From positions 1-64,000 of IMG/VR virus record IMGVR_UViG_3300034025_000053: a stretch of 64,000 nucleotides of DNA; one strand, 5' to 3'. This document shows positions 2,191 through 20,482 of the stretch, one piece after another. Position 1 is the stretch's first letter. Every line of letters begins with the position of its first letter. The stretch comes from a virus. Position numbers and translations under genes: made by a program. The notes below the pieces were generated by a model. It was not told the origin of the DNA, searched no databases, and saw nothing but the letters and a program-made list of their open reading frames with translations.

Positions 2191-2549
2191 CCGCTGACCT
2201 GACCGGCGATCTGCTGGCGCTGTGGGTGGCGCGCGCGGAAGGCATGGAGCCGCGTGCCAATCATTTTGGCTACTGGGTGGTGAACCCATCGGAGAAAAAC
2301 CAGTTCGAAGGCTACATCGGCGACAAGGCCGGCGATCTCTCCCCAAAATACGCGCCGCACGAGAACTGGGCGCAGGGCGGTCCGATCATCGAACGCGAGA
2401 AGATTGGCCTTGTGATGCGGCCGGACGGTTGGCTCGCAGGCTATGCCCATCATGCTATCGGCACAGGCGGACTCGCCCCCACGCCGCTGATCGCCGCCAT
2501 GCGCGCCTTCGTCGCCAGCAAGTTCTGCGTGTGCGAGGTGACGCCATGA
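2184..2549 (+). CDS. DUF2591/NinX-like phage protein (121 aa)
   Basis: Internal ATG at 2184. N-terminus LTGDLLALWVARAEGME matches the pattern I associate with DUF2591 phage proteins. Confidence 0.55.
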   Translation: MLTADLTGDLLALWVARAEGMEPRANHFGYWVVNPSEKNQFEGYIGDKAGDLSPKYAPHENWAQGGPIIEREKIGLVMRPDGWLAGYAHHAIGTGGLAPTPLIAAMRAFVASKFCVCEVTP

Positions 2550-2746
2550 TGCGCTTCCTGTGGCGCGCCATCGTGCCCGGCTCTACCTTCAACGTCTGGT
2601 GGTGGCTCGTCTGGCTTGGTTTCGCCGTCTTCATGGACTGGCCCCGCGAGATGATCATCTACGGCATCATCTTCCTCCTCAACCTCTACTCGTGGGATTA
2701 CCAGCGCCGGCGTGCGGCTGGCCTGCCGAAGGATCCGCAATGCTGA
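2546..2746 (+). CDS. small membrane protein (66 aa)
   Basis: ATGA overlap at 2546. Trp-rich hydrophobic segments WWWLVWLGFAVF and IIYGIIFLLNLY. Confidence 0.5.
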   Translation: MMRFLWRAIVPGSTFNVWWWLVWLGFAVFMDWPREMIIYGIIFLLNLYSWDYQRRRAAGLPKDPQC

Positions 2747-3192
2747 TGACAACTGAGCAAGCCTCCGCCACCTGGTGCCCCATGGTGCGCATCGCCCGGC
2801 GTGAGCCTGTAGTCCCGCAACCGCGCAGCATTGCGGATGCTGAAAACGTCGTGGTCGTCGCCGGCTGCAATACCGATGCGCTCTACGGCCTGCGCGTGCC
2901 AGCCTCCTGCCGCTGCATCGCCGCGGACTGCGCGATGTGGCGCTTCGCAGACACGACGCCAGAGCACCGCAATCCGAAGCTGTGGTGGGCGGAGGAGGAT
3001 GAGCCGGCGACTGAGCCGCCGCGCCCGGAGAGAGTTCCAGCCAGCGCGGAATGGGTGCCCTACGAAGCTGTCGACGATGGTTTCGACGGCGGCTACTGGC
3101 TGGAGTCGGCCGAGGCACTGTCCGCCGAGATCGCCAAGGCAGCTGCTGCCCGTCGCGGCTTCTGCGGTCTGGCCGGGAAGCCGGTCGTATGA
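2740..3192 (+). CDS. hypothetical protein (150 aa)
   Basis: Internal ATG at 2740 in track ORF 2560..3192. It overlaps the end of the upstream gene. Confidence 0.5.
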   Translation: MLMTTEQASATWCPMVRIARREPVVPQPRSIADAENVVVVAGCNTDALYGLRVPASCRCIAADCAMWRFADTTPEHRNPKLWWAEEDEPATEPPRPERVPASAEWVPYEAVDDGFDGGYWLESAEALSAEIAKAAAARRGFCGLAGKPVV

Positions 3193-3497
3193 GCCGGGCC
3201 GTCACCGAGCGCGACTTCCGTGCCCCAGAGTTCCGCAATGCTGATCCGGCCGACTACGAGTTCCGCAGTGACGGCAAGATCGTGCGCAAGGACCGCTGGG
3301 AGAAAGCTATTTTCCGCATCGCGTTCGGGCTGGATTTTTGCACACGCGAGGGCTTCGAGATCGATGATGTGGTCGCGGCCGCGCGCGAGCTGGTCGACTC
3401 GTCGGTCGATATGGCCAAGCAGCTGGCCGCCGATGAAATCTGGTGGACGATCAAAAATAGCGCGGTCCCATTCCTGTTCGATAACCCGTTTGACTGA
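3189..3497 (+). CDS. hypothetical protein (102 aa)
   Basis: ATGA overlap at 3189, internal start of track ORF 3051..3497. Confidence 0.5.
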   Translation: MSRAVTERDFRAPEFRNADPADYEFRSDGKIVRKDRWEKAIFRIAFGLDFCTREGFEIDDVVAAARELVDSSVDMAKQLAADEIWWTIKNSAVPFLFDNPFD

Positions 3498-3506
3498 AAG
3501 CCCACA

Positions 3507-4454
3507 ATGAACGACCAAAAAATCTACCAGTACCTGGCCCGCAAGCCGGACGCGCGCGCGCAAGATATCGCCGATGTCATGGACGTCGAGCTGAGGGATG
3601 CGAGCGAGGCGCTGCGCAGCCTGGTCGATGTCGGCGACGTGTCGCGCTACACCGGTACCGGCCCGAATGGCCTTTCGGTGCAGCTGTACAACCTGAGCGA
3701 CACGTTCAAGAAGTCGCGCGAGTACCAGGTGATCATGTCGCAGATCGAGGCGGCCAAGAAGGCGCCTGAGCCTGCGCCCGCCCCACCACCACCGCCAGCG
3801 CCACCACCGCCCGCGCCGCCGGCGCCGGTAATCCCCCCGGTGTTTGCCAAGGCGGAGGAACTGCCGCGCATGGGCACGCATGCCGATCGCGCGATGGCGG
3901 CGATCAAGAATGGCCCGGTGTCCGACGCCGACATGCGTGTGCACCTGGGCCTGACTGACGGCCAATACCCGTCGGTGTTCCTCAAGAGCGCCGTGAAGAA
4001 CGGGCGCCTGCACCGCGGCGTGCACGGCTGGACTGTCGGGCCAACGCCAACGGCGGGGAAGTTCTCGCCTCCGATCAGCCCGCCGAAGAACGAGGTCAAG
4101 GCGCAGTTCAAGCCGACCGACGAGCCGGCTAACGAGACTGCGCACTTGCTGAGTTCGCCCGCCAACGCGGCTCACCTGGATCAATCGATCAAGCAGCTGC
4201 CGATGGTCGCCGAGGGTGCTCCCTTCGACAAGTTGAAGCTGAGGGTCAGCCCTGTGCAGACGATCGAGGTGGAGCGCCGCGCGCCAGTGCCAGACGGTGA
4301 TGCGCCCGTATTCCGCTGCGGCCTGTGGTCCGACGGCGTGCTCGAGCTTCAGCGCGACGGCGTGACGGTTGCCCGCCTGCAGCGCGGCGAGGTCGAGAGC
4401 ATTCAGCAGTTTATGGGCCGCGTGGTCCAGTGGCCTGGGGAGGTGGCGGCGTGA
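3507..4454 (+). CDS. hypothetical protein with wHTH-like N-terminus and a poly-Pro/Ala linker (315 aa)
   Basis: Track ORF. N-terminus IYQYLARKPDARAQDIADVMDV looks like a winged helix. Linker PEPAPAPPPPPAPPPPAPPAP. Confidence 0.6.
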   Translation: MNDQKIYQYLARKPDARAQDIADVMDVELRDASEALRSLVDVGDVSRYTGTGPNGLSVQLYNLSDTFKKSREYQVIMSQIEAAKKAPEPAPAPPPPPAPPPPAPPAPVIPPVFAKAEELPRMGTHADRAMAAIKNGPVSDADMRVHLGLTDGQYPSVFLKSAVKNGRLHRGVHGWTVGPTPTAGKFSPPISPPKNEVKAQFKPTDEPANETAHLLSSPANAAHLDQSIKQLPMVAEGAPFDKLKLRVSPVQTIEVERRAPVPDGDAPVFRCGLWSDGVLELQRDGVTVARLQRGEVESIQQFMGRVVQWPGEVAA

Positions 4455-4966
4455 GCACCCGGCGCAAACGCACACCGCCGCCGGGCCGCCCGGGCGACAT
4501 GTTCACGCTGATGGACGAGATGCTGGCTTCGCCCACGGAGCCGATGCCGGCCGATGACGCAGCCTCGCGCGTGGCTGCCGCCCTGCACCACCTGGAACGC
4601 CTGGCAACCGAACCCGCCCCGAACGTCATGGAGTGGCGGGTGTGCGCGATGGTCGGCAACTTCATGGAGGTGCTGCTCGAGCTTGGCATCGCACAGGATC
4701 CGGATGGGCTGCTGGTCGACGCGTTCGCCGCGCTGCGTGCGGCCGCTGAGCGCAACCTGCGCGCCGGCAAAACGATCCGCCTGACCGGGCCCGGGCTGGT
4801 GGCGATCCGTGGCTTGATCCGCGATTTCGCCGAGATCCTTGAGCAGGCGCCGCACCGGACGATCATCCGGGCGTTCCGCGAGACGGACAAACGCGTGCGC
4901 TCACTCGATCGTGGCGGGCGCCGGCCGTCGGATTACGTGGCTCAAGTCGGGTTGGCACGGTCATGA
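4451..4966 (+). CDS. hypothetical protein (171 aa; alternative ATG start at 4499)
   Basis: GTGA overlap at 4451 in the frame of track ORF 4325..4966. Confidence 0.5.
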   Translation: MSTRRKRTPPPGRPGDMFTLMDEMLASPTEPMPADDAASRVAAALHHLERLATEPAPNVMEWRVCAMVGNFMEVLLELGIAQDPDGLLVDAFAALRAAAERNLRAGKTIRLTGPGLVAIRGLIRDFAEILEQAPHRTIIRAFRETDKRVRSLDRGGRRPSDYVAQVGLARS

Positions 4967-5253
4967 GGTGCCGCAAAGGCGACATGGCCGTGGTCATCCA
5001 GCCGCTGGGCGGCAACAAGTCGACGATCGGCATGTTCGTCGATGTGCTTCAGGTCGAACCTAATCACCTTTTCCGCGACGGCGGTCGCGCCGACGCCTGC
5101 CTGATCCGGGTGCCGTGCCCGGTGCCAAGCTCCGGCGGGAACATGATCCAGCAGGGATGGGCGATGGACGCGAACCTGCAGCCGATCCGCGGCCGGGGCA
5201 AGACGGAGCCGGCGGGAGTCACCATCAAGCGGTGGGAGCCGGTAAAGCTATGA
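4963..5253 (+). CDS. hypothetical protein (96 aa)
   Basis: Track ORF with an ATGA overlap. Confidence 0.5.
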   Translation: MRCRKGDMAVVIQPLGGNKSTIGMFVDVLQVEPNHLFRDGGRADACLIRVPCPVPSSGGNMIQQGWAMDANLQPIRGRGKTEPAGVTIKRWEPVKL

Positions 5254-5519
5254 ACGAGCGCCCAGTGCATGTGAACTTCGGCACCACCTGGATCGAGCGG
5301 ACGGTAACGCTGGTCGACGGTACCGAGGTGTCGAACTATTCGCAGGAGTGGCGGCACCAGTGCGAGGCGCAGCACATTTTGAACATGCCGAGTAAGCAGG
5401 CGCGCCAGGTGCTGCTGAGCGAGATCGAGAATCGGCGCGGATCGCCGGCGCGGCGCGCACTGGAAAACCTGATTTTGGCGTTGTGGAAGGCGAAGCAGCC
5501 GCCGGCCACCGCCGCATAG
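5250..5519 (+). CDS. hypothetical protein (89 aa)
   Basis: Internal ATG at 5250 (ATGA overlap) in track ORF 5115..5519. Confidence 0.5.
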   Translation: MNERPVHVNFGTTWIERTVTLVDGTEVSNYSQEWRHQCEAQHILNMPSKQARQVLLSEIENRRGSPARRALENLILALWKAKQPPATAA

Positions 5520-5560
5520 ACCGCGCTGGCCGGGTGCCAGTATTTGAAGGGGGGGGATGT

Positions 5561-5959
5561 ATGGATGCAGTAACGTTGGACACGGTGCTTCCGTGGGTGG
5601 TGGGCGCCTTGGTGTTGCTGGCAATCGGGATCTGGGTGTGGATTGCCTTTCGGGCACGGGCCGAGCGGCTGGACGCCGAGCAGCGCCGGCGCGATCTGAA
5701 CGAGCACAATGCGCGTGTCCGGACGAACCGGGAAGCGATCCGCCGCGAACTTAGCAAGCCGAACCCGGCGGGATTGTCGCAGATTTCGACCGCGCCGCCG
5801 ATCGAGCGCCGCAAATACGGCCAGCCCCGCCCGGCCTCGGACGACACCGCGTCGCAGCACGCTCTCTATGCCGTGCCGGCGCCAGACAGCTACGGATCCA
5901 GCTGCAGCGACTCGGCGTCGAGCTCGTCGGACAGCAGCTCGTCCTGCTCATCAGATTGA
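5561..5959 (+). CDS. membrane-anchored protein with a Ser/Cys/Asp-rich C-terminal tail (132 aa)
   Basis: ATG at 5561 preceded by GAAGGGGGGGG. Transmembrane segment VLPWVVGALVLLAIGIWVWIAF. Tail SSCSDSASSSSDSSSSCSSD. Confidence 0.55.
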   Translation: MDAVTLDTVLPWVVGALVLLAIGIWVWIAFRARAERLDAEQRRRDLNEHNARVRTNREAIRRELSKPNPAGLSQISTAPPIERRKYGQPRPASDDTASQHALYAVPAPDSYGSSCSDSASSSSDSSSSCSSD

Positions 5960-6016
5960 ATCCGCCGCCGGCGCGGCCCGCCGGCACTCACGCGCTTCGG
6001 CGCAAAAAGGAAATAT

Positions 6017-6328
6017 ATGCAAGTTGGTTCTTCAGGTCTTTCTCGCTTCGGCGTGTCCGCAGGCGATACTGTCGTTGCTCCATCCGAAATTCAGTCGGGC
6101 ATGAACAACGTCAGCGGTCAGATTAATCTTCTGGTGGATCGCCTTTCGAGCCTGCACGTAGCGCTCGGTTCGGTAATGACGCCGGCCGGCCCGGAGGAGG
6201 ACAGCTCTCTCAAATCGATCCATTCCGGCCCGAGTACTCCCCTGGGGCATGAACTCGAAAACCACAATGACCGCCTTCGCGCGGCGAACAACAGCGTTCA
6301 GGACATCCTGGACCGCATCAAGCTGTAA
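6017..6328 (+). CDS. hypothetical protein (103 aa)
   Basis: Track ORF with RBS AAGGAAA 5 nt upstream. Locally lower GC. Confidence 0.5.
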   Translation: MQVGSSGLSRFGVSAGDTVVAPSEIQSGMNNVSGQINLLVDRLSSLHVALGSVMTPAGPEEDSSLKSIHSGPSTPLGHELENHNDRLRAANNSVQDILDRIKL

Positions 6329-6354
6329 AAACCACCGCCGGCGCAGTCTGGCCG

Positions 6355-6370
6355 GCGTCGTGATGCAACC
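6355..6370 (+). promoter_or_regulatory. CGTCGTGAY motif copy upstream of the 6379 gene
   Basis: gCGTCGTGATgcaacc, directly after hairpin CGCCGGC-N8-GCCGGCG. Confidence 0.4.
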
Positions 6371-6378
6371 CTGCTCCC

Positions 6379-7095
6379 ATGAGTGAAAAATCCCCCGACT
6401 GGCGCGACAAGGCTGGCGGCTACCGCACGCGTGTCGACGCTGATGGAAAGCCGGTAGAGCGTGCGCGCGGCGGTGCCCCGAAGGCTGGTAGTCGTGCTGG
6501 ATTGTTCCAGCCACCTCGCATCGAGGTGAAAGCTGCCGCCCGCGCGCTTTACGAAGGGGTGCCGGGCGCGACGTGCGTGTCGGTCGCGAAGGAGCTGGGC
6601 GAGCCGGAAGGCACGGTTCGGCGGTGGAAGGCGGAAGAAGGTTGGAAACCGGCGAAGCGCTCGATCGCAAACCTGGGTGCGCGGGCAGGTGAACTCGCCA
6701 ATTCGTTCGCCGTGAAAATGACGGACCTGGGAAAACCAATGAGTGATGAAGTCGCCGCGGCCGAGGTCGCAAAAGAATTGTCGGAAACCTTCGCCGTCGA
6801 CGTGCGTGCGCAGCTGCTGGACCGCCACCGCAAGGAATGGGCCGGCCCGCGCAAGATCGCATACGAGGCGATGAAGGGTTCCGACCTGGACAAGGCCAAA
6901 CTGGCGAAGATCTCGGCCGAAACGCTGATGTTGATCCAGACGGGCGAGTGCCGGGCGTACGGCATGGACCAGGCCGCGCGCGGCGCCGACGAACGCCGCA
7001 CGGTGGTGGTCATCGATCGCGAGGGCGCATCCGACGTCGACCAGGATCCGCTGGCCGGCATTTCGAACGGCGTTGACGGGCCGGATTCCTTCTGA
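6379..7095 (+). CDS. putative small terminase-like HTH protein (238 aa)
   Basis: HTH-like segment CVSVAKELGEPEGTVRRWKAEEGW and the overall layout resemble TerS-type proteins. This is a motif-level guess only. Confidence 0.45.
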   Translation: MSEKSPDWRDKAGGYRTRVDADGKPVERARGGAPKAGSRAGLFQPPRIEVKAAARALYEGVPGATCVSVAKELGEPEGTVRRWKAEEGWKPAKRSIANLGARAGELANSFAVKMTDLGKPMSDEVAAAEVAKELSETFAVDVRAQLLDRHRKEWAGPRKIAYEAMKGSDLDKAKLAKISAETLMLIQTGECRAYGMDQAARGADERRTVVVIDREGASDVDQDPLAGISNGVDGPDSF

Positions 7096-8573
7096 TGGGC
7101 AAGCTACGCGTGGTCGGCCCCGACGACAGCGGCATCTTCATGCCCACCGAGATCGTCATGCGCCTGGTGGCCGAGCTGCTGCCGTATGCGCAGAACTCGC
7201 GCACCCATACCCCGGCAAGCACGGCCAGCCTGGTCAGCATGATCAAAAAATTCGGCTGGACCAACCCGGTGCTGATCGCTGATGGCGGGATCCTGGCGGG
7301 CCACGGTCGCATCATGGCCGCCGGCAAGCTGGGTCTGGTCAAGGTGCCGTGCATCGACCTGTCCCACTTGGATGCAGACGCGCGCCGCGCGCTGGTGATC
7401 GCCGACAACCGCTCGAGCGAGCTGTCCACCTGGTCGCTCGAGGAGCTGAAGGGCGAGACGGATTACCTGCGCGATGTCGGTTTCGACATGGAGGCGGACC
7501 TGGGCTTCGCCGAGGACGACCTCGCCAGCATGTTCGAGGGGATGGTCGGCGCGCCGGATACTGGCGATGGCGATCCGGACGAGGTGCCCGAGGTGCCGGT
7601 CGAGCCGGTGTCGCGGGTGGGTGACGTGTGGATCTGCGGCGCCCACCGGGTGATGTGCGGCAGCGCGCTCGAGCTGTCCCACTGGGACGCCCTGATGGGT
7701 GGCGAGCTGGCGGACGTCGTCTGGACGGATCCGCCGTACAACGTCGATATCGGCGGCAAAAACGAATCGCTCGATCGAGCCGACGGCGGCAGCCGGGCCA
7801 AGACCGGCAAACTCCAGAACGACAAGCTCGCCGCGGGCGAATTCCGCGAGTTCCTGCTCGGGATGTACCGTGCCGTTTTCGAGGTGATGAAGCCGGGCGC
7901 GCCGATCTACGTGGCGCACGCCGACAAGGAGGCGCTGGCCTTCCGCGCCGCGTTCGAGGAGGCTGAGTTCAAGTTCTCGTCCATGGTGATCTGGAAGAAG
8001 AACGTGATGGTGCTGGGCATGTCGGACTTTCAGCCCATCCACGAGCCGATCATCTACGGGTGGAAACCCGGCTCGAAGCACCGGTGGTACGGCGGCCGCA
8101 AGAACACCAGCGTCATCGACTTCGGCGAGGCCGGGCCCTTCACCCAGCTGCCCGACGGGCGCTGGCAGATCAAAATTGGCGATTCGATCATGGTGGTGTC
8201 TGGCGACGCGACCGTGCAGGAAAGCCCGGCCAGCGTGATCCACGAGGCCAAGCCGTCGAAATCGGGCCTGCACCCAACGCAGAAGCCGGTGGCTCTGGTC
8301 GAGCGCCTGCTCAAGCAGTCGGCGCGCGCCGGCGACATCGTGGTCGACGCGTTCGGCGGGTCCGGCACAACGCTGGTCGCGGCAGATCGCATGGGCATGT
8401 GCGCCAGGCTGATGGAGCTGGATCCCGCATTCGCCGACGTGATCGTGGTGCGCTGGCAGCAGCTGACCGGCCGGCGCGCGGCGCTGGCCAGCACCGGCGA
8501 GCTGTTCCCTGCAGGCGATGAGGTGCGCGCGCCGGCGCCGGACGAGCTGCCAGGCGCCGAGGGGCTGTTTTGA
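7095..8573 (+). CDS. ParB-like nuclease domain fused to a beta-class N6A/N4C DNA methyltransferase (492 aa)
   Basis: N-terminal ParB-like segment (GWTNPVLIADGGILAGHGR). DPPY motif VVWTDPPYNV comes before the SAM motif VVDAFGGSGTT, which is the beta-class order. Confidence 0.85.
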   Translation: MGKLRVVGPDDSGIFMPTEIVMRLVAELLPYAQNSRTHTPASTASLVSMIKKFGWTNPVLIADGGILAGHGRIMAAGKLGLVKVPCIDLSHLDADARRALVIADNRSSELSTWSLEELKGETDYLRDVGFDMEADLGFAEDDLASMFEGMVGAPDTGDGDPDEVPEVPVEPVSRVGDVWICGAHRVMCGSALELSHWDALMGGELADVVWTDPPYNVDIGGKNESLDRADGGSRAKTGKLQNDKLAAGEFREFLLGMYRAVFEVMKPGAPIYVAHADKEALAFRAAFEEAEFKFSSMVIWKKNVMVLGMSDFQPIHEPIIYGWKPGSKHRWYGGRKNTSVIDFGEAGPFTQLPDGRWQIKIGDSIMVVSGDATVQESPASVIHEAKPSKSGLHPTQKPVALVERLLKQSARAGDIVVDAFGGSGTTLVAADRMGMCARLMELDPAFADVIVVRWQQLTGRRAALASTGELFPAGDEVRAPAPDELPGAEGLF

Positions 8574-8803
8574 AATCCGCTCTCGATGTCCTGGGCGACC
8601 TGTCCGGCCTGAGCAAGCCGGCGCTCAACGAGATCCTTGAGCAGGTCAGGGCGAACCAGGCGCTGCTGAACGCGTGCGCCCGGCATGAATTCGAGCAGGT
8701 GCTGCCGGTGGTGCCCTTGCGCCAGAAGTATCGCTGCAAGCGGTGCGGCGGCGAGGTCGACCATCACGCCTGGTATTGGCACCAACAGGGCCGCCGGCAG
8801 TAG
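8570..8803 (+). CDS. hypothetical protein (77 aa), TTG start
   Basis: Track ORF. The only in-frame start is a TTG overlapping the upstream TGA. CxxC near the C-terminus. Confidence 0.4.
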   Translation: MKSALDVLGDLSGLSKPALNEILEQVRANQALLNACARHEFEQVLPVVPLRQKYRCKRCGGEVDHHAWYWHQQGRRQ

Positions 8804-8921
8804 TATTCGCGGCCTGGAATACCACGAAGGACATTGAAATACATCAAATTAATTACACGCGGCATCAATAATGCATTAAAATTGCTGCACGTTCTTAATT
8901 TCAACTGTCCTACGGAAACCC
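8804..8921 (+). promoter_or_regulatory. AT-rich intergenic region, probable promoter/operator for the HD-hydrolase operon
   Basis: Sharp GC drop. Hairpin GTATTC-N8-GAATAC (8803-8822). Two CATCAA(A)T(A)A motifs (8843, 8863). TAAAAT at 8877. No convincing -35 found. Confidence 0.3.
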
Positions 8922-9443
8922 ATGAACAACCAAGAAAATATCGCCTTCAGGGCGATGCTGTTCGCGCGCCGCGTGCACAGCCGCCAGCAGCGCAAATACA
9001 CCGGCAATCCATACACTGATCACCTGGCTGAAGTAGCCGGCATCGCCATGACGATGGGTTGGCATACGCCAGCCATTCACCCCGACAAGTTCATTGCCGT
9101 CTGCTGGCTGCACGACACCGTCGAGGACCAAGGCGTCACCAAGGAAGAACTGTTCGACAACTTCGGCGCCATCGTCATGGACGGGGTGATGCTGCTGTCC
9201 GATGTGGAAAGTGGCAACCGCGCCGAGCGCAAAGCTGCCGCCCGCGCCCGCCTCGCCAACGCCCCGGGCTGGGTCCAGTCCATCAAGTGCGCTGACCTGA
9301 TCAGCAATACCTCGTCGATCGTCATGCACGATCCGAAGTTTGCGGTCACCTACCTCGAAGAAAAACGCCTGCTGCTCGACGTCATGACCAAGGCCGATCC
9401 TCGCTTGCTCCAGTTGGCGCGTGCGCAGGCGGAGCGGGTATGA
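8922..9443 (+). CDS. SpoT/Mesh1-type HD-domain hydrolase (small alarmone hydrolase-like, 173 aa)
   Basis: RVHSRQQRKYTGNPYTDHLAEVA ... WLHDTVEDQGVTKEELFDNFG fits the (p)ppGpp-hydrolase HD signature (H..HD..ED). Confidence 0.8.
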   Translation: MNNQENIAFRAMLFARRVHSRQQRKYTGNPYTDHLAEVAGIAMTMGWHTPAIHPDKFIAVCWLHDTVEDQGVTKEELFDNFGAIVMDGVMLLSDVESGNRAERKAAARARLANAPGWVQSIKCADLISNTSSIVMHDPKFAVTYLEEKRLLLDVMTKADPRLLQLARAQAERV

Positions 9444-11071
9444 AGCGCGACGCCTTCACCCTACAGCTCGACTTGGGTAACGAGCTCGTCGTTGACAACT
9501 TTGCCGGCGGCGGCGGCGCCTCCGAGGGGATCGAGCAGGCGATCGGCCGCAGCATCGACATCGCGATCAACCACAACGGCGAAGCGCTGGCGATGCACGC
9601 TGTCAACCACCCTGGAACCATGCACTACGTCGAGGACGTGTTTGCCATGCACCCGGGGTTCGTCACCGGCAACCGCCCGATCGGGCTGGCGTGGTTCAGC
9701 CCCGACTGCAAGCACCACAGCAAGGCAAAGGGCGGCAAGCCGCGCGAGAAGAAGATCCGCGGACTGGCCTGGGTCACCCTGAAGTGGGCGACGTTCCAGA
9801 TGCCGCGCTGCATCGCGCTGGAGAACGTCGAAGAATTCCAGGACTGGGGGCCTCTCGACGCCGATGGCAAGCCGATCAAGGCTGAGCGCGGCCGCACCTT
9901 CCGCGCCTTCATCGACGCGCTGTCCACCGGCCTTGAGCTTGGGCATCCGGACACCGAAGAAATTTTCGAAGCACTCGGCGCCGACTTCCCGATGGAGCGG
10001 CTGCACGTAGGCTTGGGCTACAAGGTCGAATGCCGCATCCTGCGGGCCTGCGACTACGGTACGCCGACGATCCGCAAGCGCCTGTTCGTGTTCGCCCGCT
10101 GCGACGGCCGTCCGATCGTCTGGCCAAAGCCGACCCACGGCAACCCGAAGCTGAAGACGTTCGCCGCCTCGGGCCTGGCGCCGTGGCGCACGGCCGCCGA
10201 TTGCATCGACTGGTCTATCCCATGCCCTTCCATCTTCGATCGCAAGAAGCCGCTGGCCGAGAAGACGTTGGCGCGCATCGCCAAGGGGGTGATGAAGTAC
10301 ATCGTCAACAGCGATGATCCGTTCATCATCAAGTTCAGCGAAAACAGCGTTGGCCAGGGCCTGGATGAGCCGCTGCACACGGTCATGGCGGGCGCGCCGC
10401 GCTTCGGGGTGATCCAGCCGACCCTGGTGCCGTTCGTCACCGAATGCGCCAACGGGTCGACCCAGCGCAATTTCAGCGCCGAGGAGCCGCTGCGCACCCA
10501 ATGCGCCGAGGTGAAGGGTGGCCACTTCGCACTGGTTTCCGCGATGTTGGCCAAGCACTACACCGGCGTCGTTGGCACCGATGTGCGTGTCCCGTTTGGC
10601 ACCGTCACCACCGCCGACCATCATTCTGTGGTGGCGACCACGCTGGTCAAGCTGCGCAACAACCAGTTCGGCCAGGACGTGCGCGATCCGATCCCGACGC
10701 TCACCGCCGGCGGCGGCCACGTGGGCGAGGTGCGCGCCTTCCTCGTCAAGTATTACAGCGAGGGCGGCCAGGACCAGTCGCTCACCGACCCGATGCACAC
10801 CATCCCGACCAAGGATCGCATTGGCCTGGTGACGATCCATGGCCAGGACTACGCCATCATTGATATCGGGATGCGCATGCTCACGCCGCGCGAGCTGGCC
10901 CGGGCGCAAGGCTTCCCGGAAACGTACATTCTGGACCTGACGTACAACGGCAAGAAACTGTCGAAAGAGGCCCAAGTCCGGATGATTGGCAACAGCGTCT
11001 GCCCGCCCCTGGCGCGCGCGCTGATCGAAGCGAACTTTACGCATGAGCATGCGATGGCGAGGGCAGCATGA
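9440..11071 (+). CDS. DNA (cytosine-5)-methyltransferase (543 aa)
   Basis: Motif I FAGGGGASEGI. Motif IV-like FSPDCKHHS. Motif VI ALENVEEF. RELARAQGFPETY. Motif X GNSVCPP. Confidence 0.9.
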   Translation: MKRDAFTLQLDLGNELVVDNFAGGGGASEGIEQAIGRSIDIAINHNGEALAMHAVNHPGTMHYVEDVFAMHPGFVTGNRPIGLAWFSPDCKHHSKAKGGKPREKKIRGLAWVTLKWATFQMPRCIALENVEEFQDWGPLDADGKPIKAERGRTFRAFIDALSTGLELGHPDTEEIFEALGADFPMERLHVGLGYKVECRILRACDYGTPTIRKRLFVFARCDGRPIVWPKPTHGNPKLKTFAASGLAPWRTAADCIDWSIPCPSIFDRKKPLAEKTLARIAKGVMKYIVNSDDPFIIKFSENSVGQGLDEPLHTVMAGAPRFGVIQPTLVPFVTECANGSTQRNFSAEEPLRTQCAEVKGGHFALVSAMLAKHYTGVVGTDVRVPFGTVTTADHHSVVATTLVKLRNNQFGQDVRDPIPTLTAGGGHVGEVRAFLVKYYSEGGQDQSLTDPMHTIPTKDRIGLVTIHGQDYAIIDIGMRMLTPRELARAQGFPETYILDLTYNGKKLSKEAQVRMIGNSVCPPLARALIEANFTHEHAMARAA

Positions 11072-11448
11072 AGCGCCTCTACATCGCCGGGCCGATGAGC
11101 GGCCTGCCAGACCTGAATTTCCCGGCCTTCAACGCCGAAGCGGCCCGCCTGCGTGCGCTTGGCTACGATATCGTCAACCCGGCCGAGATCAACGTGGGCA
11201 CGCCGCACCCGGGCTGGGCTGCTTGCATGAAGTTGGACATCAAGCAGCTGGTCGACTGCGACGGCGTTGCGCTGCTGCCGGACTGGTTCCGCTCCAAAGG
11301 TGCATCGATCGAGCACCGCCTCGCGCACGATCTTGGCATGCCGATCTATCACGCAGCCGCGATCGTCAGCTCTGTGTTGCCGACGCCGGTCAACATGGCC
11401 GGGCCAACCGCACCGGCCGCGCGCACCACCGACTGGGCGGCCGCATGA
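11068..11448 (+). CDS. DUF4406 / nucleoside 2-deoxyribosyltransferase-like protein (126 aa)
   Basis: N-terminus MKRLYIAGPMSGLPDLNFPAFN matches the DUF4406 pattern. ATGA overlaps on both sides. Confidence 0.65.
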   Translation: MKRLYIAGPMSGLPDLNFPAFNAEAARLRALGYDIVNPAEINVGTPHPGWAACMKLDIKQLVDCDGVALLPDWFRSKGASIEHRLAHDLGMPIYHAAAIVSSVLPTPVNMAGPTAPAARTTDWAAA

Positions 11449-12563
11449 ACGCGCCTATCCGGTTTTTCGGTTCCATGGCCAGCGGCGGGAAACCCGCCAG
11501 CGTGTCCGTTCACCCTGATGTTGAGCAGCTGCTCGCCCGCAATGCCGTGGTGGCGGTTGGCGTCTCTGGTGGAAAGGATAGTCAGGCCTGTGCCCTGGCC
11601 GTGGCCAGTCACCTTGACGCCATCGGCCACACTGGCCCGCGCATTCTCGTGCACGCTGATCTCGGCAGGGTCGAGTGGAAGGACAGTCTACCGACTTGCC
11701 AGCGCCTGGCCGATCATCTCGGCTGGGAGCTGCTGGTGGTCCAGCGCAAGGCCGGCGACATGCTCTCCCGGTGGCAAGGACGCTGGAAAAATAATGTCGC
11801 GCGCTACGTCGATTTGGAATGCGTAAAATTGATCCTGCCGTGGTCGACGCCATCGATGCGGTTCTGCACGTCCGAACTCAAGGTAGCCGTGATTGAAAGC
11901 GCCTTGAAAAAGCGTTTTGCAGGGCAGGACGTCATCAACGTCACCGGTGTGCGCCGTGAGGAAAGTGCCAACCGAGCAAAGGCCCCGGTCGCGAAGTCCA
12001 ACCCAGATGTTGTCAAGGAGGGCGGGACGGGCTTCACCTGGAACGCAATCATCGACCTGTCGATCGGGCAAGTCTTCAGTACCATCGAGGCCTCTGGGCT
12101 GGCCCTTCACGAGGGTTACACAGTCCACAATATGAGCCGCATCAGCTGCGTGTTTTGCATCATGTCCAACCTGGACGACATGCAAAACTCAGCGGCCTGC
12201 GAGGACAACGTGCCGGTTTATCTCGACATGGTTGAGATCGAGGCAGTGTCGACCTTTGCGTTCCAGGGTTCGCGCTGGCTCGCCGATGTCGCCCCTCATC
12301 TTGTCGGCGAAGAACTCGGCGCCAGGGTCGCCCATGCCAAGGAAATGGCCCGGGTCCGCGTTGCGGCCGAGTCCAGGCTGCCTAAGCATCTGCTGTACAC
12401 GAAAGGCTGGCCTACGGCAGTTCCGACCATGGCCGAGGCTGAGTTGCTGGCTGATGTCCGCCGCATCGTCTCCGAGTCTGTTGGCCTGCGGGTCAACTAT
12501 CTCGATCCAGCCGACATCATCAGCCGCTACCAGCAGCTCCTGTCGCTGAAGGCGGCAGCATGA
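11445..12563 (+). CDS. PAPS-reductase-family PP-loop protein (372 aa)
   Basis: PP-loop VGVSGGKDS. Downstream motifs CTSELK and TGVRREES are typical of the PAPS reductase / DndC-like superfamily. Start is the internal ATG at 11445. Confidence 0.8.
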   Translation: MNAPIRFFGSMASGGKPASVSVHPDVEQLLARNAVVAVGVSGGKDSQACALAVASHLDAIGHTGPRILVHADLGRVEWKDSLPTCQRLADHLGWELLVVQRKAGDMLSRWQGRWKNNVARYVDLECVKLILPWSTPSMRFCTSELKVAVIESALKKRFAGQDVINVTGVRREESANRAKAPVAKSNPDVVKEGGTGFTWNAIIDLSIGQVFSTIEASGLALHEGYTVHNMSRISCVFCIMSNLDDMQNSAACEDNVPVYLDMVEIEAVSTFAFQGSRWLADVAPHLVGEELGARVAHAKEMARVRVAAESRLPKHLLYTKGWPTAVPTMAEAELLADVRRIVSESVGLRVNYLDPADIISRYQQLLSLKAAA

Positions 12564-12808
12564 AGGCCACCGCTTTCACTATCGATGGAAAGACCATCGG
12601 CTTCATCGCGCGTGAGGTAGCGCGAACGGACAACGTCGAGGAGCAGTGCAACGGCTGCTTGTTTGAGGGGAGATCGTCTGAAACCTGCTACGCCGCATGC
12701 AAGCTCGCCACCGAGGCTGGGCAGCCCGACTGCGACGATCACGGCAGCATCTACATCTACGTGGTGGCGGATCCGCGCCAGCTGGTGTTGCCGGTGGAGG
12801 GTGTATGA
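12560..12808 (+). CDS. hypothetical Cys-rich protein (82 aa)
   Basis: Track ORF with ATGA overlaps on both sides. Confidence 0.5.
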   Translation: MKATAFTIDGKTIGFIAREVARTDNVEEQCNGCLFEGRSSETCYAACKLATEAGQPDCDDHGSIYIYVVADPRQLVLPVEGV

Positions 12809-14130
12809 ACGCGCCCTACACCTTGATCCACGGCGACTGCATCACCGAGATGAGCAAGCTGCCGGCCAACAGCGTGGACGCGATCGTTACTGACCCACCG
12901 TACGGGATCCGCTTCATGGGCAAGGCCTGGGATGGCGCCGATATCGACGCGCGCGCGGCTCGGCGGCGCAGCTTCGCTTCGCAGGCTCCGGACGCTGGCC
13001 CAAATGGTGGCCACAAGTCCATCGCCGCCGAGGCCGGCAAGTATAACCTCGCGCCAGGCGCGATGCGCGCCTTCCAAGAATTTAGCGAGGAGTGGGCGCG
13101 CGAGGCGTTCCGCGTGCTCAAGCCAGGCGGGCATCTGCTGTCGTTCTCGTCGGCGCGAACCTATCACCGGATGGTGTCGGGAATCGAGGACGCCGGCTTC
13201 GAGATCCGCGACCAGCTGCTATGGCTTTACGGTTCGGGCTTCCCGAAGTCGCGCAACCTCGATGGCGTACACGAAGGCTGGGGCACGGCGCTGAAGCCCG
13301 CACACGAGCCAATTTGCATGGCGCGCAAGCCGCTAATCGGCACCGTGTCTGCCAACGTGCTGGCGCACGGCACCGGGGCTATCAACATCGATGCTTGCCG
13401 CGTGGGTGCCGAAAGCACCGCCCGCGACACGCTGAAAGAATTGTCCTCTCGCGGCGCGACCGGCGGCAGCTTCGCCAATCAGGATCACCGCTACGCCGAT
13501 CGCACATCGAAGTACCCGACAGGCAGCGACGCCGGCCGCTGGCCCGCCAACTTGATTCACGACGGCAGCGCCGCGGTTGTGGCGCTATTCCCGGCTGAAG
13601 CTGGCGCCCAGGCGCCCGTGCACCGCCGCAACGGCGACAAGTTCCGCAATTTGTTCGGCAAGTTCGAGGGCAACGTCGATGAGGCCGGCAGCACGTTTCA
13701 GGGAGACACCGGCAGCGCCGCCCGCTTCTTCTACTGCGCCAAGGCCAGCCGCACCGACCGCAATGAGGGCCTGCCGAGCGGCGATGCGCCAGCGGTCGAA
13801 ACTGACGCCACCATGCGCGACTGTGAGAACGCCGACTGGATCGCGCGCAATGGCAACCACCACCCGACCGTAAAGCCAACCGACCTGATGGCTTACCTGG
13901 TGCGCCTGGTCACGCCGCCGGGCGGTACCGTCCTCGATCCATTCATGGGCAGCGGGTCGACCGGCAAGGCCTGCATGCGCGAGGAATTCCATTTCATCGG
14001 TATCGAACTCGCCGCCAGCTATATCGAGATCAGCCAGGCGCGCATCTCGCACGAGCTGGCGCGCGTGATCGCCGCGAACACCCCGCCACCGCCATCGCCG
14101 CAAATGGACCTGTTCGGGGCAATGGCATGA
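12805..14130 (+). CDS. beta-class N6A/N4C DNA methyltransferase (441 aa)
   Basis: IHGDCITEM...AIVTDPPYG near the N-terminus and HPTVKP...LDPFMGSGSTGKA near the C-terminus. Start is the internal ATG at 12805. Confidence 0.85.
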   Translation: MNAPYTLIHGDCITEMSKLPANSVDAIVTDPPYGIRFMGKAWDGADIDARAARRRSFASQAPDAGPNGGHKSIAAEAGKYNLAPGAMRAFQEFSEEWAREAFRVLKPGGHLLSFSSARTYHRMVSGIEDAGFEIRDQLLWLYGSGFPKSRNLDGVHEGWGTALKPAHEPICMARKPLIGTVSANVLAHGTGAINIDACRVGAESTARDTLKELSSRGATGGSFANQDHRYADRTSKYPTGSDAGRWPANLIHDGSAAVVALFPAEAGAQAPVHRRNGDKFRNLFGKFEGNVDEAGSTFQGDTGSAARFFYCAKASRTDRNEGLPSGDAPAVETDATMRDCENADWIARNGNHHPTVKPTDLMAYLVRLVTPPGGTVLDPFMGSGSTGKACMREEFHFIGIELAASYIEISQARISHELARVIAANTPPPPSPQMDLFGAMA

Positions 14131-14918
14131 CGGCGGCACCGAAGCGCGGCGCGCTGAAGTCGACCTGTGCCGTGTGCGCAAAGGTGTTCACGGTGTCGCC
14201 GTCAAAGGCGGCACGCGGCGGCGGGGTGACCTGCTCGGCGGCGTGTCGCAAGGATATAGCTGGATTCGGGCGCCTGGTGCGTGCGGCGCTGCCCGGCACC
14301 GCGCGCCAGGTCGCCGATCGGAGTGGTGTGATGTTGGCGAGCCTGCGCGCCATGCTCACCAAGATGCTTCGGGCCGGCACCTGCCACGTGGCAGGCTTCG
14401 AGCGAAACGATCAGGGTAAGCTGCAAGGCGCGCCGAAGTTTATGCCGGTGCTGGCGCTGGGCCCGTCGCCGGATCCCGACATGCCCGCCGACATGCGCGC
14501 GGCCGTGACCTACCACACCCGCAAGATCACGTTGGCGGCCATGCCGAACTCGGTTCCGGCGATCGCTGTGGACACTGGCATGCCGCAGACGTCGACCCTG
14601 CGTATCGTCAAGCAGCTGCACGACGAGGGGCTATGCCGCGTTGGGGACTGGCAGCGATCGATCCGCGGGCTGCCGTCTGCGATCTACCACGCTGGCGCCG
14701 GCGAGGATGTGCCGTGCCGCCTGAAGAAGTTCACGCCGGCGCAGAAGACGGCACGCTACCTGCGCAACGTGAAGAACAACCCGGACCTGGGCGTCAAGCG
14801 CGACCTCACCGTTGCCCGCGATCGCAACCGCTACTGGGAAAAGGTGGCGACCGAGCGTCGTGACCCAATGATTGCAGCACTGTTCGGCCCGGCGCGTGCG
14901 CCAATGGAGAGTTCTTGA
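14127..14918 (+). CDS. zinc-ribbon plus tandem wHTH-like protein, candidate transcription regulator (263 aa)
   Basis: CAVCAKVF...CSAACR ribbon. Two wHTH-like segments: TARQVADRSGVMLASLRAMLTKM and TGMPQTSTLRIVKQLHDEGL. Confidence 0.55.
   Translation: MTAAPKRGALKSTCAVCAKVFTVSPSKAARGGGVTCSAACRKDIAGFGRLVRAALPGTARQVADRSGVMLASLRAMLTKMLRAGTCHVAGFERNDQGKLQGAPKFMPVLALGPSPDPDMPADMRAAVTYHTRKITLAAMPNSVPAIAVDTGMPQTSTLRIVKQLHDEGLCRVGDWQRSIRGLPSAIYHAGAGEDVPCRLKKFTPAQKTARYLRNVKNNPDLGVKRDLTVARDRNRYWEKVATERRDPMIAALFGPARAPMESS
14853..14870 (+). promoter_or_regulatory. CGTCGTGAC motif copy (inside the 3' end of the 14127 gene)
   Basis: gagCGTCGTGACccaatg, about 50 nt upstream of the 14918 start. Confidence 0.3.
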
Positions 14919-15345: not shown

Positions 15346-18300
15346 ATGGATATCCTTGCCAGCGCCCCGCGCCTCTACCTTATCAAAGCTGATGTCAAGA
15401 TCGCGCACCAGGCGGGCTACGCCCTGTGGGGTGGGCGTTGGCATAAAGTCCACCAGAACAAGCCTGCGCCCAAGGGCGCGCCGCTCAGCGCGCATCCGCA
15501 CGCGGCTGGCCAGCACCAGCCCGTCAAGCACTTCACCGACGAGCAGTGGGAAGGCCTGAAGCTGCCGGCGGAGAATTCCAACGCCGGCACGTACAACAAG
15601 CAGCTCAAGCAGCTCCAGGAGTGGTCGGACGCCGGCGACGTGACTGCGATCGTGGGCGCCGGCTACGGCGTCAACACCTATGGCAAAAAGGCCGCGGCGA
15701 TCGCCAATCACCTGCTGGGCCTGCACGGATCCCCGCACAAGGTCGCCGCCGGCCAGAAGCCTGGCTGGCATGCTGCTGTGGAGCATGCGCCGGCCGAGCC
15801 GGTTGAGGCGCCGGAGCCGGCACCAGAACCCGAGCCAACGCCAGCCGCTGAGCCGCCAGCTGCTGAGCCTGCGCCGGTACCGGCGGCGCCCGAACCGGCC
15901 ACGGTCCCGAAGTCAGTCTCATCCCCTGCAATTCAGTCGATCGCTGATCCCGATTTCCCGGCTGGCTACAAGACGTCGAAATTCTTCACCAAGGTAGCCG
16001 TCGGCCTCAAGATGATGGCGCACGAGGGCAAGCTCGGCGAACTACAGGCGGCGTTCAAACCCGACGAGGCTGCTTGGCAGGGAAAGAGCCCGAACAGCAA
16101 GACGCTGCTCGCCTACCACGGCGCGCTTGTCAGCGCGCTGAAGGGCCCGCCTGCCCCTGCGGAAGATCCTGTTGTGGTGATACAGCCAGACATAAAAGCC
16201 TGGGTGGATGACTGTGTGGCTGCCGGGGATTGGTCCAATCTGAAAGACGTCCACAAACAATTCAAAGGGTCGAGCGTCCCGGAAAACGCCGTCATCGCGG
16301 AGTACATACAGGACGCGTTGGATAAGAAAGCGGCCGCGAAGAAAAAGGCGCCCAAAGCCGCACCCGCGCAGGAACAGGCCCCGGCGCTCGTTGCGCCAGC
16401 TCCGACGTCACCAGTCGCCTCGATGCCCTGGGACAAGTTCGTCCTGCCGGCCGAGAACACGAACGCCCCGAGTCACAACAAGAAGGTCGCGCAGATCAAG
16501 GCGCTGGCCGAGGCCGGCGACGTGGCCGGACTGGAAGCACTGAAGCTGGGCACCAACACGTACGGGAAGAAGCAGGCGCTGATCGCGCAGGCGGCGATCG
16601 CCGCGCTGAAGCAGGCTGCGCCAGTGGCCGCCGTGCCCGCGCCAGCGCCAGTCGCGCCGCCGCCAGAACCGAAGGCACCTGTTGCAGAGACGGGCCCCAA
16701 GGACGGCGACACCAAGCCTGGCGCCAACGGCACCACGCTGGTCTTCAAGGACGGGCGCTGGCATGCGCAGAAGCAGGCCCCGGCAACGGCGCCGGTCGCT
16801 GTGACGTCCGACGTTTATGTCAACCAGCAAGATGGCCACAACAAGTACTGGTCGGTGTCCGTGCACGGTAACGTTATGAAAACGGTGTACGGCAAGGTCG
16901 GTTCGCAGGGGCAAACCACTGACAAAGTATTCGATTCGCCATCGGAAGCTACGCACGCATCTCTAAAATTGAAGGCGCAAAAACTTAAGAGTGGATACGC
17001 ATTCAAAGGCCACGGCCAGCATACCCATTCCAGCACCACGCCAGCGCCTGCCCCGGCGCCAGCACCAGCGCCAGCACCAGCGCCAAAGAAATCGGCAGCT
17101 GCTGCCTCGACGAGTGCCGCCTACCCGTCGATGGACACCTGGCAGCAGATCGGCCCACAGGGCGGGTCCAACCCGGGCGGCAAGTTTAAGGCGCCCGACG
17201 GCACCGAGTACTACTGCAAATTCCCTGCGGACGAGAACATCGCCAAGTCGGAGGTGCTGGCGGCGAAACTGTACGCGGCCGCGGGCCTGGCCGGCCAGGA
17301 CGCGCAGCTGATAACCAAAAACGGCAAGATTGGCATCGCCAGCAAATGGGTGGAGGTCAAGAAGGGCAAAACCGCCACGGCGCTGGCCAAGGCGCCAGAC
17401 GCTCAGGGCGGCTTCGCGGTCGATGCCTGGCTGGCAAACCATGATGTGGTCGGCCTGGGCTACGACAACCTGCAGATCGGCGCTGACGGCAAGGCCGTTC
17501 GCGTCGATGCGGGCGGGTCGCTGGAGTATCGCGCCCAGGGTGCCAAGAAGGAATTCGGCCACCACGTCGTCGAGATCGATACGCTGCGCGACGCAGCGAA
17601 GAACCCCCAAGCTGCCACCATCTTCGGGAAGATGACGCAGGCCGATATCGCCGCCTCGGTGGCGAAGGTTGCGGCCGTCAGCGATGCCGAGATCAAGAGC
17701 CTGGTCGAACAGTTCGGCCCGGGCGACGCCGCCGCGAAGAAGGCCATGGCAGCCACGCTGATCGCGCGCAAGGCTGATCTGCTGGCCAAATACCCAAAGG
17801 CCGCCATGGCAGTGGCCAAAGGCTCGTCGTGGGTTCGCCTGAAGCCTGGTGAGCGCATCGTCGAGGCCGGGGAAAAGTTCGGCGTCCACTGGGCGAAGAT
17901 CAAAGTTCCGCCAAAGGGCTTCCACTCGGACGCGATCGCCACCCCGCCCAACTTCTTCATGAACGGCAACCAGGGTCCTACCAACACCTGGAAATCGTCC
18001 GTGCAGCACGTGAACGAGGCCAACAATCTGGCTGGCCAGCGCGTGTTCGACACGGCAATCCAGCAGAAGACCTTCGCCGCGGTCCAGGGCCTCACGTTCG
18101 AGCAGATCGACAAGGCCACGGGCAACAAGACCGGCGTGAAGCTGCCGTACGCCCAGCACCCCGCCGGCGAGATCAAGGAGTACTACAAGCAGGTCGCGGC
18201 CGAGCTCGAGGCGCAGACGCAAGCCACTTACAAGACCGTCCAGAACGGATCGTTCACGCAGAGCTATTCCACTGCAGCGCTCAGCATGGCGGCCGACTTC

Positions 18301-20419: not shown

Positions 20420-20420
20420 A

Positions 20421-20451: not shown

Positions 20452-20482
20452 GGTGTCATTCCAACGAAACAAGGATGACATC

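Follow-up and report, generated by a model that had tools for sequence, protein, structure and literature searches.

A proposed mosaic DNA-protection island in a Dolphis-related phage includes a stand-alone DndC/SspD-like enzyme with a possible role in counter-defence

The DNA considered here, termed the window, is the 64,000-nucleotide stretch formed by positions 1 to 64,000 of the IMG/VR virus record IMGVR_UViG_3300034025_000053. Near its left end lies a dense run of DNA-modification genes, one of which encodes a protein of the PAPS-reductase superfamily. We read this run, with a probability of about 0.5, as a mosaic anti-restriction island, ordinary parts included, together with a stand-alone mobile-element enzyme resembling DndC and SspD, which would use ATP and an Fe-S cluster to transfer a group to nucleic acid in the service of counter-defence. 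The region 7095-14918, continuing to about 21.6 kb, would then be a co-transcribed mosaic operon for DNA protection and counter-defence in a tailed phage of roughly 97 kb related to phage Dolphis, and not a single biosynthetic pathway. The PAPS-reductase-like protein would adenylate a nucleic-acid substrate and transfer sulfur (or another nucleophile) to it, the sulfur being supplied by a host cysteine desulfurase by way of the protein's predicted Fe-S cluster. Its target may be the element's own DNA, which would acquire a phosphorothioate-like or other thio modification; alternatively, the protein might neutralise phosphorothioate-based defences (Dnd, Ssp, BREX type 4). The gene would be self-contained, often recruited beside a DNA methylase gene and elsewhere fused to one. 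Two further genes of the island, encoding a DUF4406 protein (a deoxynucleoside monophosphate or nucleoside N-glycosyl hydrolase/transferase fold) and an HD_4 protein, would specify separate nucleotide-pool or signal-nucleotide enzymes and occupy a swappable slot.

An initial annotation, made from the sequence alone, had recognised a modification-gene island at 7095-14130, and in this it was right: every gene it named lies on the + strand where it had been placed, and the motifs, including the PP-loop SGGKDS, are present. The genes on which the argument turns, with families assigned from Pfam, PHROGs, NCBIfam and PADLOC and lengths in amino acids (aa), are as follows.

7095-8573, + strand: orphan 492-aa protein, a ParB-like domain fused to a beta-class N6/N4 methylase (phrog_498, 1e-133; PADLOC MTase_II, 4e-110)
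9440-11071, + strand: orphan 543-aa C5 cytosine DNA methylase, or Dcm (Pfam DNA_methylase, 72.6 bits against a cut-off of 22; phrog_116, 1e-97)
11068-11448, + strand: 126-aa DUF4406 protein, nucleoside 2-deoxyribosyltransferase-like (PF14359, 2.5e-26, 92.4 bits against a cut-off of 22; phrog_355, 2e-34)
11445-12563, + strand: 372-aa PP-loop ATP pyrophosphatase of the PAPS-reductase superfamily, long form (Pfam PF01507 PAPS_reduct, 26 bits against a cut-off of 22.5)
12805-14130, + strand: orphan 441-aa beta-class N6/N4 DNA methylase (N6_N4_Mtase, 116.9 bits against a cut-off of 26.7; phrog_67, 1e-78)

The longest open reading frame (ORF) spanning the PAPS-reductase-like gene begins at 11043; the true start is the ATG at 11445, within an ATGA overlap, and an independent gene call agrees. 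The protein consists of a catalytic domain (aa ~20-240) and a family-specific helical C-terminal domain (aa ~243-372), the latter matching nothing in Pfam even at E<=5. Its motifs are SGGKDS at aa 41-46 (nt 11565-11582), RFCTSELK (nt 11859-11882) and CVFC (nt 12147-12158). Across 76 viral homologues, short and long forms together, R139-x-C141-T-S-[DE]-x-K146, R170, E173-S174, R177, H222, R232-x-S234-C235-x-x-C238 and D245 are invariant, and SGGKDS is so in 75 of the 76; the catalytic residues are likewise invariant across 22 long-form proteins. This residue set (SGGKDS; RxCTS[DE]xK; RxxES; H; RxSCxxC; D), with a phrog_424 match at 1.6e-22, places the protein in the family. C141, C235 and C238 are spaced similarly to the [4Fe-4S] ligands in APS reductase and the tRNA thiolases; such a three-cysteine constellation is typical of [4Fe-4S] sulfur-inserting enzymes. 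With its canonical PP-loop and three-cysteine set the protein is therefore predicted to be an ATP-using PP-loop enzyme with such a constellation, and it has what the sequence of a DndC/SspD/BrxP-type protein should offer, a canonical PP-loop and conserved cysteines for a predicted Fe-S cluster.

The AlphaFold2 (AF2) model of the 372-aa protein is confident (predicted local distance difference test, pLDDT, 88). Its best Protein Data Bank (PDB) folds by Foldseek include the Fe-S APS reductase 2goy (top match, E 5e-5), the [4Fe-4S] tRNA thiolase NcsA and TilS, with 7lhr and 4bwv also found. Sequence searches of the PDB, by protein and by profile, gave only insignificant PP-loop matches, weak ones to NcsA and TtuA among them, and no DndC or SspD structure; a fold search of BFVD returned only other proteins annotated as PAPS reductase. 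The closest defence profiles in PADLOC are SspD (9e-8), BrxP (1e-7) and DndC (7e-7), at 27-30 bits, and the likeness to phosphorothioation enzymes that had been proposed for this protein is thus borne out: it is closer to them than to CysH. No CysH or APS-reductase model of NCBIfam was listed for it at E<=0.01. An hhalign alignment to Escherichia coli CysH, whose sequence was verified against 2o8v and 1sur, has a probability of 86% and spans aa 46-231, ending at CysH aa 215; the phage protein's SGGKDS corresponds to SSSFG in CysH, and its RFCTSELK sits in an insertion. The C-terminal ECG[LI]H cysteine of CysH, in its ECGLH tail, has no counterpart, there being no invariant cysteine after C238 in either the 22 or the 76 homologues. 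Judged by sequence, then, the protein is not a CysH, because it has the ATP PP-loop SGGKDS, aligns only over aa 46-231 and has no ECGLH.

Long-form proteins of this family, of 370-410 aa, are widespread. A word-indexed search scored 2920 matches among 8000 candidates and an exhaustive search found 315 clusters (at 50% identity) at E<=1e-30, in Beta-, Alpha- and Gammaproteobacteria and Acidobacteria. The family is present on 218 PLSDB plasmids, 141 of them from Pseudomonas and including megaplasmids of 300-550 kb; pPABL048 and 140 other Pseudomonas plasmids, large clinical plasmids of 190-555 kb in the listed records, carry long-form genes about 60% identical to that of the window, set within long runs of small hypothetical genes. 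Indeed, the usual setting of a family gene is alone among small hypotheticals, or beside genes for replication, partition, H-NS or topoisomerase. Among 50,697 phage records searched by tblastn (threshold 1e-5), only 12 GenBank records matched, of which a single one, an uncultured record, was of the long form.

What does recur next to the gene is a DNA methylase. We collected 80 viral contigs with a PAPS-reductase homologue, 77 of them usable, and examined the neighbouring genes. Pfam assignments of the 150 immediate neighbours comprise eight C5 methylases, five MT-A70, four Phage_rep_O and otherwise singletons, ArdA, GemA and GapR among them; the 148 genes two positions away are mostly helix-turn-helix (HTH) proteins, with some ParB and one methylase among the families listed (these counts cover the top 25 families, so single further matches are possible). 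With a uniform local detector, which recovers 10 of the 150 where Pfam recovers 13, methylases occupy position ±1 in 10 of 150 cases and positions ±2 to ±5 in 5 of 569, an odds ratio of 8 (p=1.4e-4). Immediate neighbours in bacterial-genome loci include MT-A70 (5), ParB_N (4), N6_Mtase (3), ArdC-N with polyvalent metallopeptidase (3) and C5 methylase (2), as well as Fic and conjugative coupling ATPases: these are the settings of mobile-element establishment and anti-restriction. No cys genes were found among the neighbours in either the viral or the genome loci. Methylases of differing classes may even enclose the gene, as in locus L085 (Dcm and D12 Dam) and plasmid pNY5530-NR1 (N6_Mtase and Dcm). 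The link that recurs is thus between a PAPS reductase and an adjoining DNA methylase, whatever its class.

Two kinds of rearranged homologue bear on whether the domain is active. In locus L052 an uninterrupted ORF of 2205 aa (1720-8337, + strand) encodes a polyvalent protein with PAPS_reduct between Peptidase_C39 and an inorganic pyrophosphatase (InPase), a neighbour that fits an active, pyrophosphate-releasing enzyme delivered early. In two other proteins, P0123 (705 aa) and P0155 (686 aa), a LAGLIDADG_3 domain splits the PAPS-reductase domain just after the CxxC region, in what looks like an intein or homing-endonuclease insertion. As far as sequences can tell, this embedding and these insertions speak for a domain that retains catalysis and matters to mobile elements.

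Among cultured phages the nearest relatives are Dolphis and Jeremy of Pseudomonas putida, at 75% nucleotide identity in patches. In Dolphis the order is a TerS-like gene, ParB-methylase, a variable slot, a PAPS reductase gene overlapping that of a beta-methylase, and an ADP-ribosyltransferase giant protein. The methylase domain of the window's ParB-methylase is 61% identical to Dolphis gp99, and the 12805-14130 methylase is 59% identical to gp104, which directly follows a PAPS reductase. That PAPS reductase, gp103, belongs to the short subfamily and is only about 30% identical to the window protein. In Dolphis the variable slot is filled by AraC and MazEF, in the window by a 77-aa ORF and the HD, Dcm and DUF4406 genes. 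Since the slot contents differ while the PAPS reductase and the following beta-methylase are kept, there is a synteny breakpoint between DUF4406 and the PAPS reductase.

This breakpoint counts against an earlier proposal, that Dcm, DUF4406 and the PAPS reductase act together, in sequence, to build a non-methyl hypermodified base, a scheme we now regard as highly improbable. Using every island protein as a tblastn query on the 77 viral PAPS-reductase loci, we found DUF4406 adjacent to the PAPS reductase in none and present in only one, 8.8 kb away, with Dcm-like genes nearby in a minority. BLAST clustering of the ±5 neighbour genes revealed no conserved partner, the largest cluster, which includes the Dcm of the window, being represented in 10 of 78 loci. 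Starting instead from 80 viral loci with DUF4406, we found a PAPS reductase no more than 2.5 kb away in two and no more than 6 kb away in five, with Dcm nearby in five and a beta-methylase in five. The 6-kb figure is, by our own estimate, above chance for a rare gene and favours the scheme, as do the translational coupling of the three genes both in the window and in locus L084, which carries the same island (PAPS reductase 89% identical), and two loci in which PAPS reductase and DUF4406 are neighbours, L141 and (judged from tblastn offsets) L114. Only L166 again has all three families together, inside 5 kb, but in the order PAPS reductase, C5 methylase, 150-aa gene, DUF4406 and with a PAPS reductase of a different subfamily. 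In L085, whose PAPS reductase is 77% identical, Dcm, PAPS reductase and D12 Dam stand together without DUF4406. The trio is therefore not a conserved unit across viral loci, and DUF4406 is an occasional cargo of the same kind of region and not a partner of the PAPS reductase. The DUF4406 protein scores below the cut-off of Nuc_deoxyrib_tr (17.7 against 28.8), and of the papers searched three mention the domain, which is essentially uncharacterised, each in passing.

Joint action had also been deduced from the coupling of these genes by ATGA. Overlap of start and stop codons is as frequent as first described: eight out of nine junctions between 7095 and 14127 overlap by 1 or 4 bases (ATGA, TTGA or ATGG). 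Set against 18 of 60 same-strand junctions in the whole window by our own gene calls, this means that the island is more compact than the phage as a whole (binomial about 4e-4, our own arithmetic). The coupling, however, joins nearly every gene of the block, unrelated ones included, and overlaps occur phage-wide; it points to co-expression, not to shared chemistry. As for the non-methyl modification itself, every known phosphorothioation system needs an NTPase partner (PMC12914056) and none was seen among the genes scanned. What survives of the DNA-modification idea is carried by the DndC-like PP-loop, the invariant cysteines and the flanking methylases; the three-gene pathway is not supported.

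Published opinion on phage PAPS reductases is divided, as had been supposed. Prophage PAPS reductases are still treated as sulfur genes in a 2026 preprint (10.64898/2026.02.18.706556), whereas in another, PAPS reductases in Aca-regulated operons are predicted to be anti-defence genes (PMC13551039). The only experimental link of phage PAPS reductases to counter-defence is the p0018 locus of Vibrio phage 44E38.1, a fusion of a PAPS domain with Dam, which confers escape from Dnd (bioRxiv 10.1101/2021.05.05.442762). A further candidate, the anti-Dnd protein JSS1_004, was rejected as a PAPS reductase: it is a kinase.

Several other explanations of the PAPS-reductase-like protein deserve weighing. 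It might work physically with the adjacent methylase (12805-14130), perhaps also with an 82-aa protein encoded between them, the methylase recognising sequence in place of DndE, SspB or BrxC and the sulfur or adenylyl chemistry taking place at or near its motif. We think such a two-component module unlikely, though several observations favour it: the enrichment of methylases exactly at ±1 and not further out, the order of PAPS reductase then beta-methylase shared by the window and Dolphis despite the swapped PAPS-reductase subfamily, the flanking methylases of L085 and pNY5530-NR1, and the anti-Dnd activity linked to the Vibrio PAPS-Dam fusion. Yet a specific interface is hard to square with partner methylases from at least five unrelated classes (C5, beta N6/N4, gamma N6_Mtase, D12 and MT-A70); in more than 80% of loci no methylase adjoins the gene, which stands alone on megaplasmids; and the ten longest representatives of the family include no methylase fusion, their extra domains being LAGLIDADG, AAA_34 and UPF0114. 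An RNA target is less probable still. Like TtcA, TtuA, NcsA and TilS, the enzyme would thiolate or otherwise modify tRNA or another RNA, which could guard translation against host anticodon nucleases or service the tRNAs of the phage, which include a tRNA-Glu and two with anticodon CAT. NcsA and TilS are among its best folds and NcsA and TtuA among its weak sequence matches, and the [4Fe-4S] tRNA thiolases have this three-cysteine pattern and need no NTPase partner, just as the gene here is solitary. On the other hand the fold similarity is generic to PP-loop enzymes, the closest profiles are those of the DNA-directed SspD, BrxP and DndC, and it is for DNA methylases, ParB and ArdA/ArdC, not RNA genes, that the neighbourhoods are enriched.

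Homology to DndC and SspD without their partner genes, and the anti-Dnd precedent of the Vibrio phage, would also suit a non-catalytic decoy that mimics these proteins and poisons host phosphorothioation or sensing complexes. We hold this to be very doubtful: the strict invariance of PP-loop, cysteines and Arg/Glu/His residues in 76 diverged viral homologues indicates retained catalysis, and in the L052 polyvalent ORF the domain lies beside a pyrophosphatase. That the gene is an auxiliary metabolic gene (AMG) for a CysH-type PAPS/APS reductase, boosting sulfate assimilation by the host, is the usual database annotation, and the Pfam PAPS_reduct match and the APS reductase as best PDB fold agree with it; but with an ATP PP-loop in place of SSSFG, no ECGLH tail, no CysH or APS-reductase model listed from NCBIfam at E<=0.01, and neighbours that are DNA-modification and plasmid-establishment genes, never cys genes, this is scarcely credible.

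The reading we prefer, a counter-defence island with a stand-alone transferase, has to reckon with a number of points that weigh against it. The characterised phosphorothioation systems (Dnd, Ssp, BREX type 4 and Tdp) require an NTPase (DndD, SspC or BrxC) besides the PAPS-domain protein, and a DNA-binding partner; isolates with a PAPS reductase and without a DndD-like partner had no phosphorothioate (PMC12914056; PMC12707154). No DndD/SspC/BrxC or DndE/SspB/DUF4007 partner appears in the Pfam listing for ±10 kb or among the large window proteins scanned, nor is there a recurrent NTPase or DNA-binding partner beside the family in 77 viral and about 73 genome loci, AAA_22 or nSTAND being present in only 3-4 of 143 neighbours in the latter. 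Absence of these partners implies that the chemistry differs, or that host components are used, or that the substrate is not the DNA backbone. The protein scores 18 bits against TIGR03183 DndC, whose cut-off is 290, far below the membership scores of DndC, SspD and BrxP, and its Fe-S binding, ATP use and substrate are themselves predicted. In genome loci methylases are found at 8 of 70 positions -1 and 0 of 73 positions +1, an enrichment significant at -1 only, a post hoc comparison, with p=0.21 for ±1 combined; overall, methylase adjacency is seen in about 7-17% of loci, which are not phylogenetically independent. Lastly, the Vibrio PAPS domain was not genetically separated from its fused methylase and a second gene (bioRxiv 10.1101/2021.05.05.442762), and it is of a different subfamily, no Vibrio phage appearing in the tblastn search of phage records.

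Within the preferred reading a bolder version can be framed: that the three-cysteine PP-loop family, on its own, transfers sulfur or adenylyl groups to nucleic acid and modifies DNA without DndD/SspC/BrxC machinery, the product being either phosphorothioate made by a novel path or a thio- or amino-substituted base, with a neighbouring methylase sometimes providing the targeting. We advance this as a speculation more probably wrong than right by a wide measure. Were it true, many of the "cysH sulfur AMGs" of viromes that are of this type would constitute a widespread class of anti-restriction DNA-modifying enzymes. Virome studies routinely class phage "PAPS reductase/cysH" genes with the sulfur auxiliary metabolic genes, as the 2026 preprint cited above still does. 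For this family the label is probably wrong, given the ATP PP-loop, the three invariant cysteines, the missing CysH nucleophile, carriage by mobile elements exclusively and the methylase, ParB and Ard neighbours; a place in the arms race of defence and counter-defence appears more likely. The family is large and without assigned chemistry, so that one biochemical experiment would annotate thousands of genes.

The methylases form the conventional part of the island. The ParB-fused enzyme scores 100.6 bits against N6_N4_Mtase (cut-off 26.7) and has DPPY (aa 212-215, nt 7728-7739) ahead of FGGSG (aa 420-424, nt 8352-8366), the beta-class order; its N-terminus, 7095 to ~7640, matches PHROG ParB-like families at 1.7e-34 and 4e-31 and Pfam ParB_N only weakly (E 0.11), and the whole fusion also matches PADLOC PDLC03229. 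In the 441-aa enzyme the same order is seen, DPPY (aa 30-33, nt 12892-12903) preceding FMGSG (aa 380-384, nt 13942-13956). The C5 enzyme has the FAGGGG, SPDC, ENV, RKR and GNSV motifs of its class, motif IV being SPDC and not the usual PCQ. All three orphan methylases (ParB-fused beta, C5 and beta) thus bear complete sets of catalytic motifs, and they would pre-empt host restriction at several motifs, this being the established role of orphan phage methylases. Such an endowment is ordinary: a phage with several orphan methylases evading restriction.

The gene run 6379-14918 is uninterrupted on the + strand, with 7095-14918 forming a single co-directional block. The initial annotation had passed over the HD_4 gene, the ORFs 8570-8803 and 12560-12808, the zinc-ribbon/HTH gene and the accessory block up to about 21.6 kb. 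The remaining features of the island and of the region downstream are:

6379-7095, + strand: 238-aa DNA-binding, small-terminase-like protein (Pfam Phage_terminase, E 2e-4, weak and below cut-off; phrog_1889/756)
8570-8803, + strand: 77-aa protein with a C-terminal CxxC zinc-ribbon-like motif (phrog_9844, 7e-15), its gene overlapping the upstream methylase gene by TTGA
8922-9443, + strand: 173-aa HD_4 (RelA/SpoT-type HD) phosphohydrolase (Pfam HD_4, 6e-9; phrog_990, 2.5e-35)
12560-12808, + strand: 82-aa cysteine-rich protein with five cysteines (CxxC and three more), encoded between PAPS reductase and beta-methylase and translationally coupled on both sides
14127-14918, + strand: 263-aa zinc-ribbon and winged-HTH protein (HTH_IclR, 1e-4, at cut-off; weak treble-clef match), overlapping the methylase gene by ATGA
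15346-21592, + strand: continuation as an accessory block encoding the 1213-aa WGR and ADP-ribosyltransferase protein, a 166-aa protein, the 311-aa NUDIX protein, a 128-aa protein and the 246-aa MTS/N6_Mtase-like protein
15346-18987, + strand: 1213-aa protein with a central WGR (Pfam, 1e-11) and a C-terminal ADP-ribosyltransferase domain (ADPrib_exo_Tox, 1e-13)
19484-20419, + strand: 311-aa NUDIX protein (Pfam NUDIX, 1e-10)
20852-21592, + strand: 246-aa methyltransferase, possibly a fourth DNA methylase (MTS, 2e-6; N6_Mtase, 8e-5)
21633-24275: large terminase (GpA_ATPase), directly after the accessory block
33070-37608, + strand: 1512-aa protein encoded amid the structural genes, with an SF2 helicase (DEAD, Helicase_C, SNF2-related) in its last 520 aa

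The 6379-7095 protein, with a 37%-identical counterpart upstream of the ParB-methylase in Dolphis, marks the upstream border of the island. The HD_4 protein matches TIGR00691 spoT_relA at 3e-9 over its N-terminal HD region only, and its gene is found near PAPS-reductase or DUF4406 homologues elsewhere at just one locus each; such a stand-alone HD_4 domain could be a small alarmone hydrolase that counters alarmone-based toxins or defences. Neither small ORF has an informative Pfam match, even at E<=5, and the 82-aa protein matches no family in PHROGs either. It is retained as an 80-aa gene in L084, and the other loci covered gave no detectable homologue; as a conserved accessory of the PAPS reductase it was rejected, the small proteins downstream of other homologues being unrelated. 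The zinc-ribbon/HTH protein is possibly a regulator. The 1213-aa protein has a 1311-aa counterpart in L084 and another, gp117, in Dolphis. Beyond the large terminase come genes for portal, sheath and tape-measure-like proteins. The N-terminal 1000 aa of the 1512-aa protein match nothing in Pfam, and as a whole it resembles virion-delivered DarB-like or polyvalent anti-restriction proteins. Three tRNA genes lie at 30035-31011 (+ strand), a Glu(TTC) gene and a pair with anticodon CAT, of which one could specify a lysidine-dependent tRNA-Ile; this stretch has a lower GC content (0.58) and the gene caller placed no protein gene in it.

Compared with DndC, SspD and BrxP, the window protein shares the PAPS_reduct superfamily, the SGGKDS PP-loop and the conserved cysteines, and the SspD match spans most of the domain; it differs in scoring far below the family cut-offs, in having no NTPase, DNA-binding partner or desulfurase gene nearby, in belonging to a family that is solitary on phages, plasmids and conjugative elements, and in its own helical C-terminal domain. 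With CysH and APS reductase it shares the fold, 2goy being the top PDB match. The positions of its cysteines resemble those of the APS reductase cluster ligands. It lacks the ECGLH nucleophile and the cys-gene context of these enzymes, however, and has an ATP-type PP-loop and the RFCTSELK insertion. The short forms of PHROG 424, such as Dolphis gp103, have identical invariant residues and a syntenic place upstream of an orthologous beta-methylase, but at about 250 aa and about 30% identity they are without the 130-aa helical C-terminal domain and Cys85. Vibrio 44E38.1 p0018 resembles the window in tying a phage PAPS domain to a DNA adenine methylase, in the same order of PAPS then methylase; there the two are fused and here they are separate genes, the methylase is Dam/D12 and not beta-class, and the subfamily is another. 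Finally, the island recalls the orphan-methylase anti-restriction islands and plasmid leading regions (PMC5512222) in its several orphan methylases, its methylase fused to a ParB-like domain and its large proteins containing ADP-ribosyltransferase or helicase domains, and ArdA, ArdC, ParB and polyvalent metallopeptidase genes are neighbours of PAPS-reductase homologues; that 2017 survey of polyvalent proteins nowhere names PAPS, DndC or a PAPS-reductase domain, whereas here the domain is seen inside a polyvalent ORF, that of L052.

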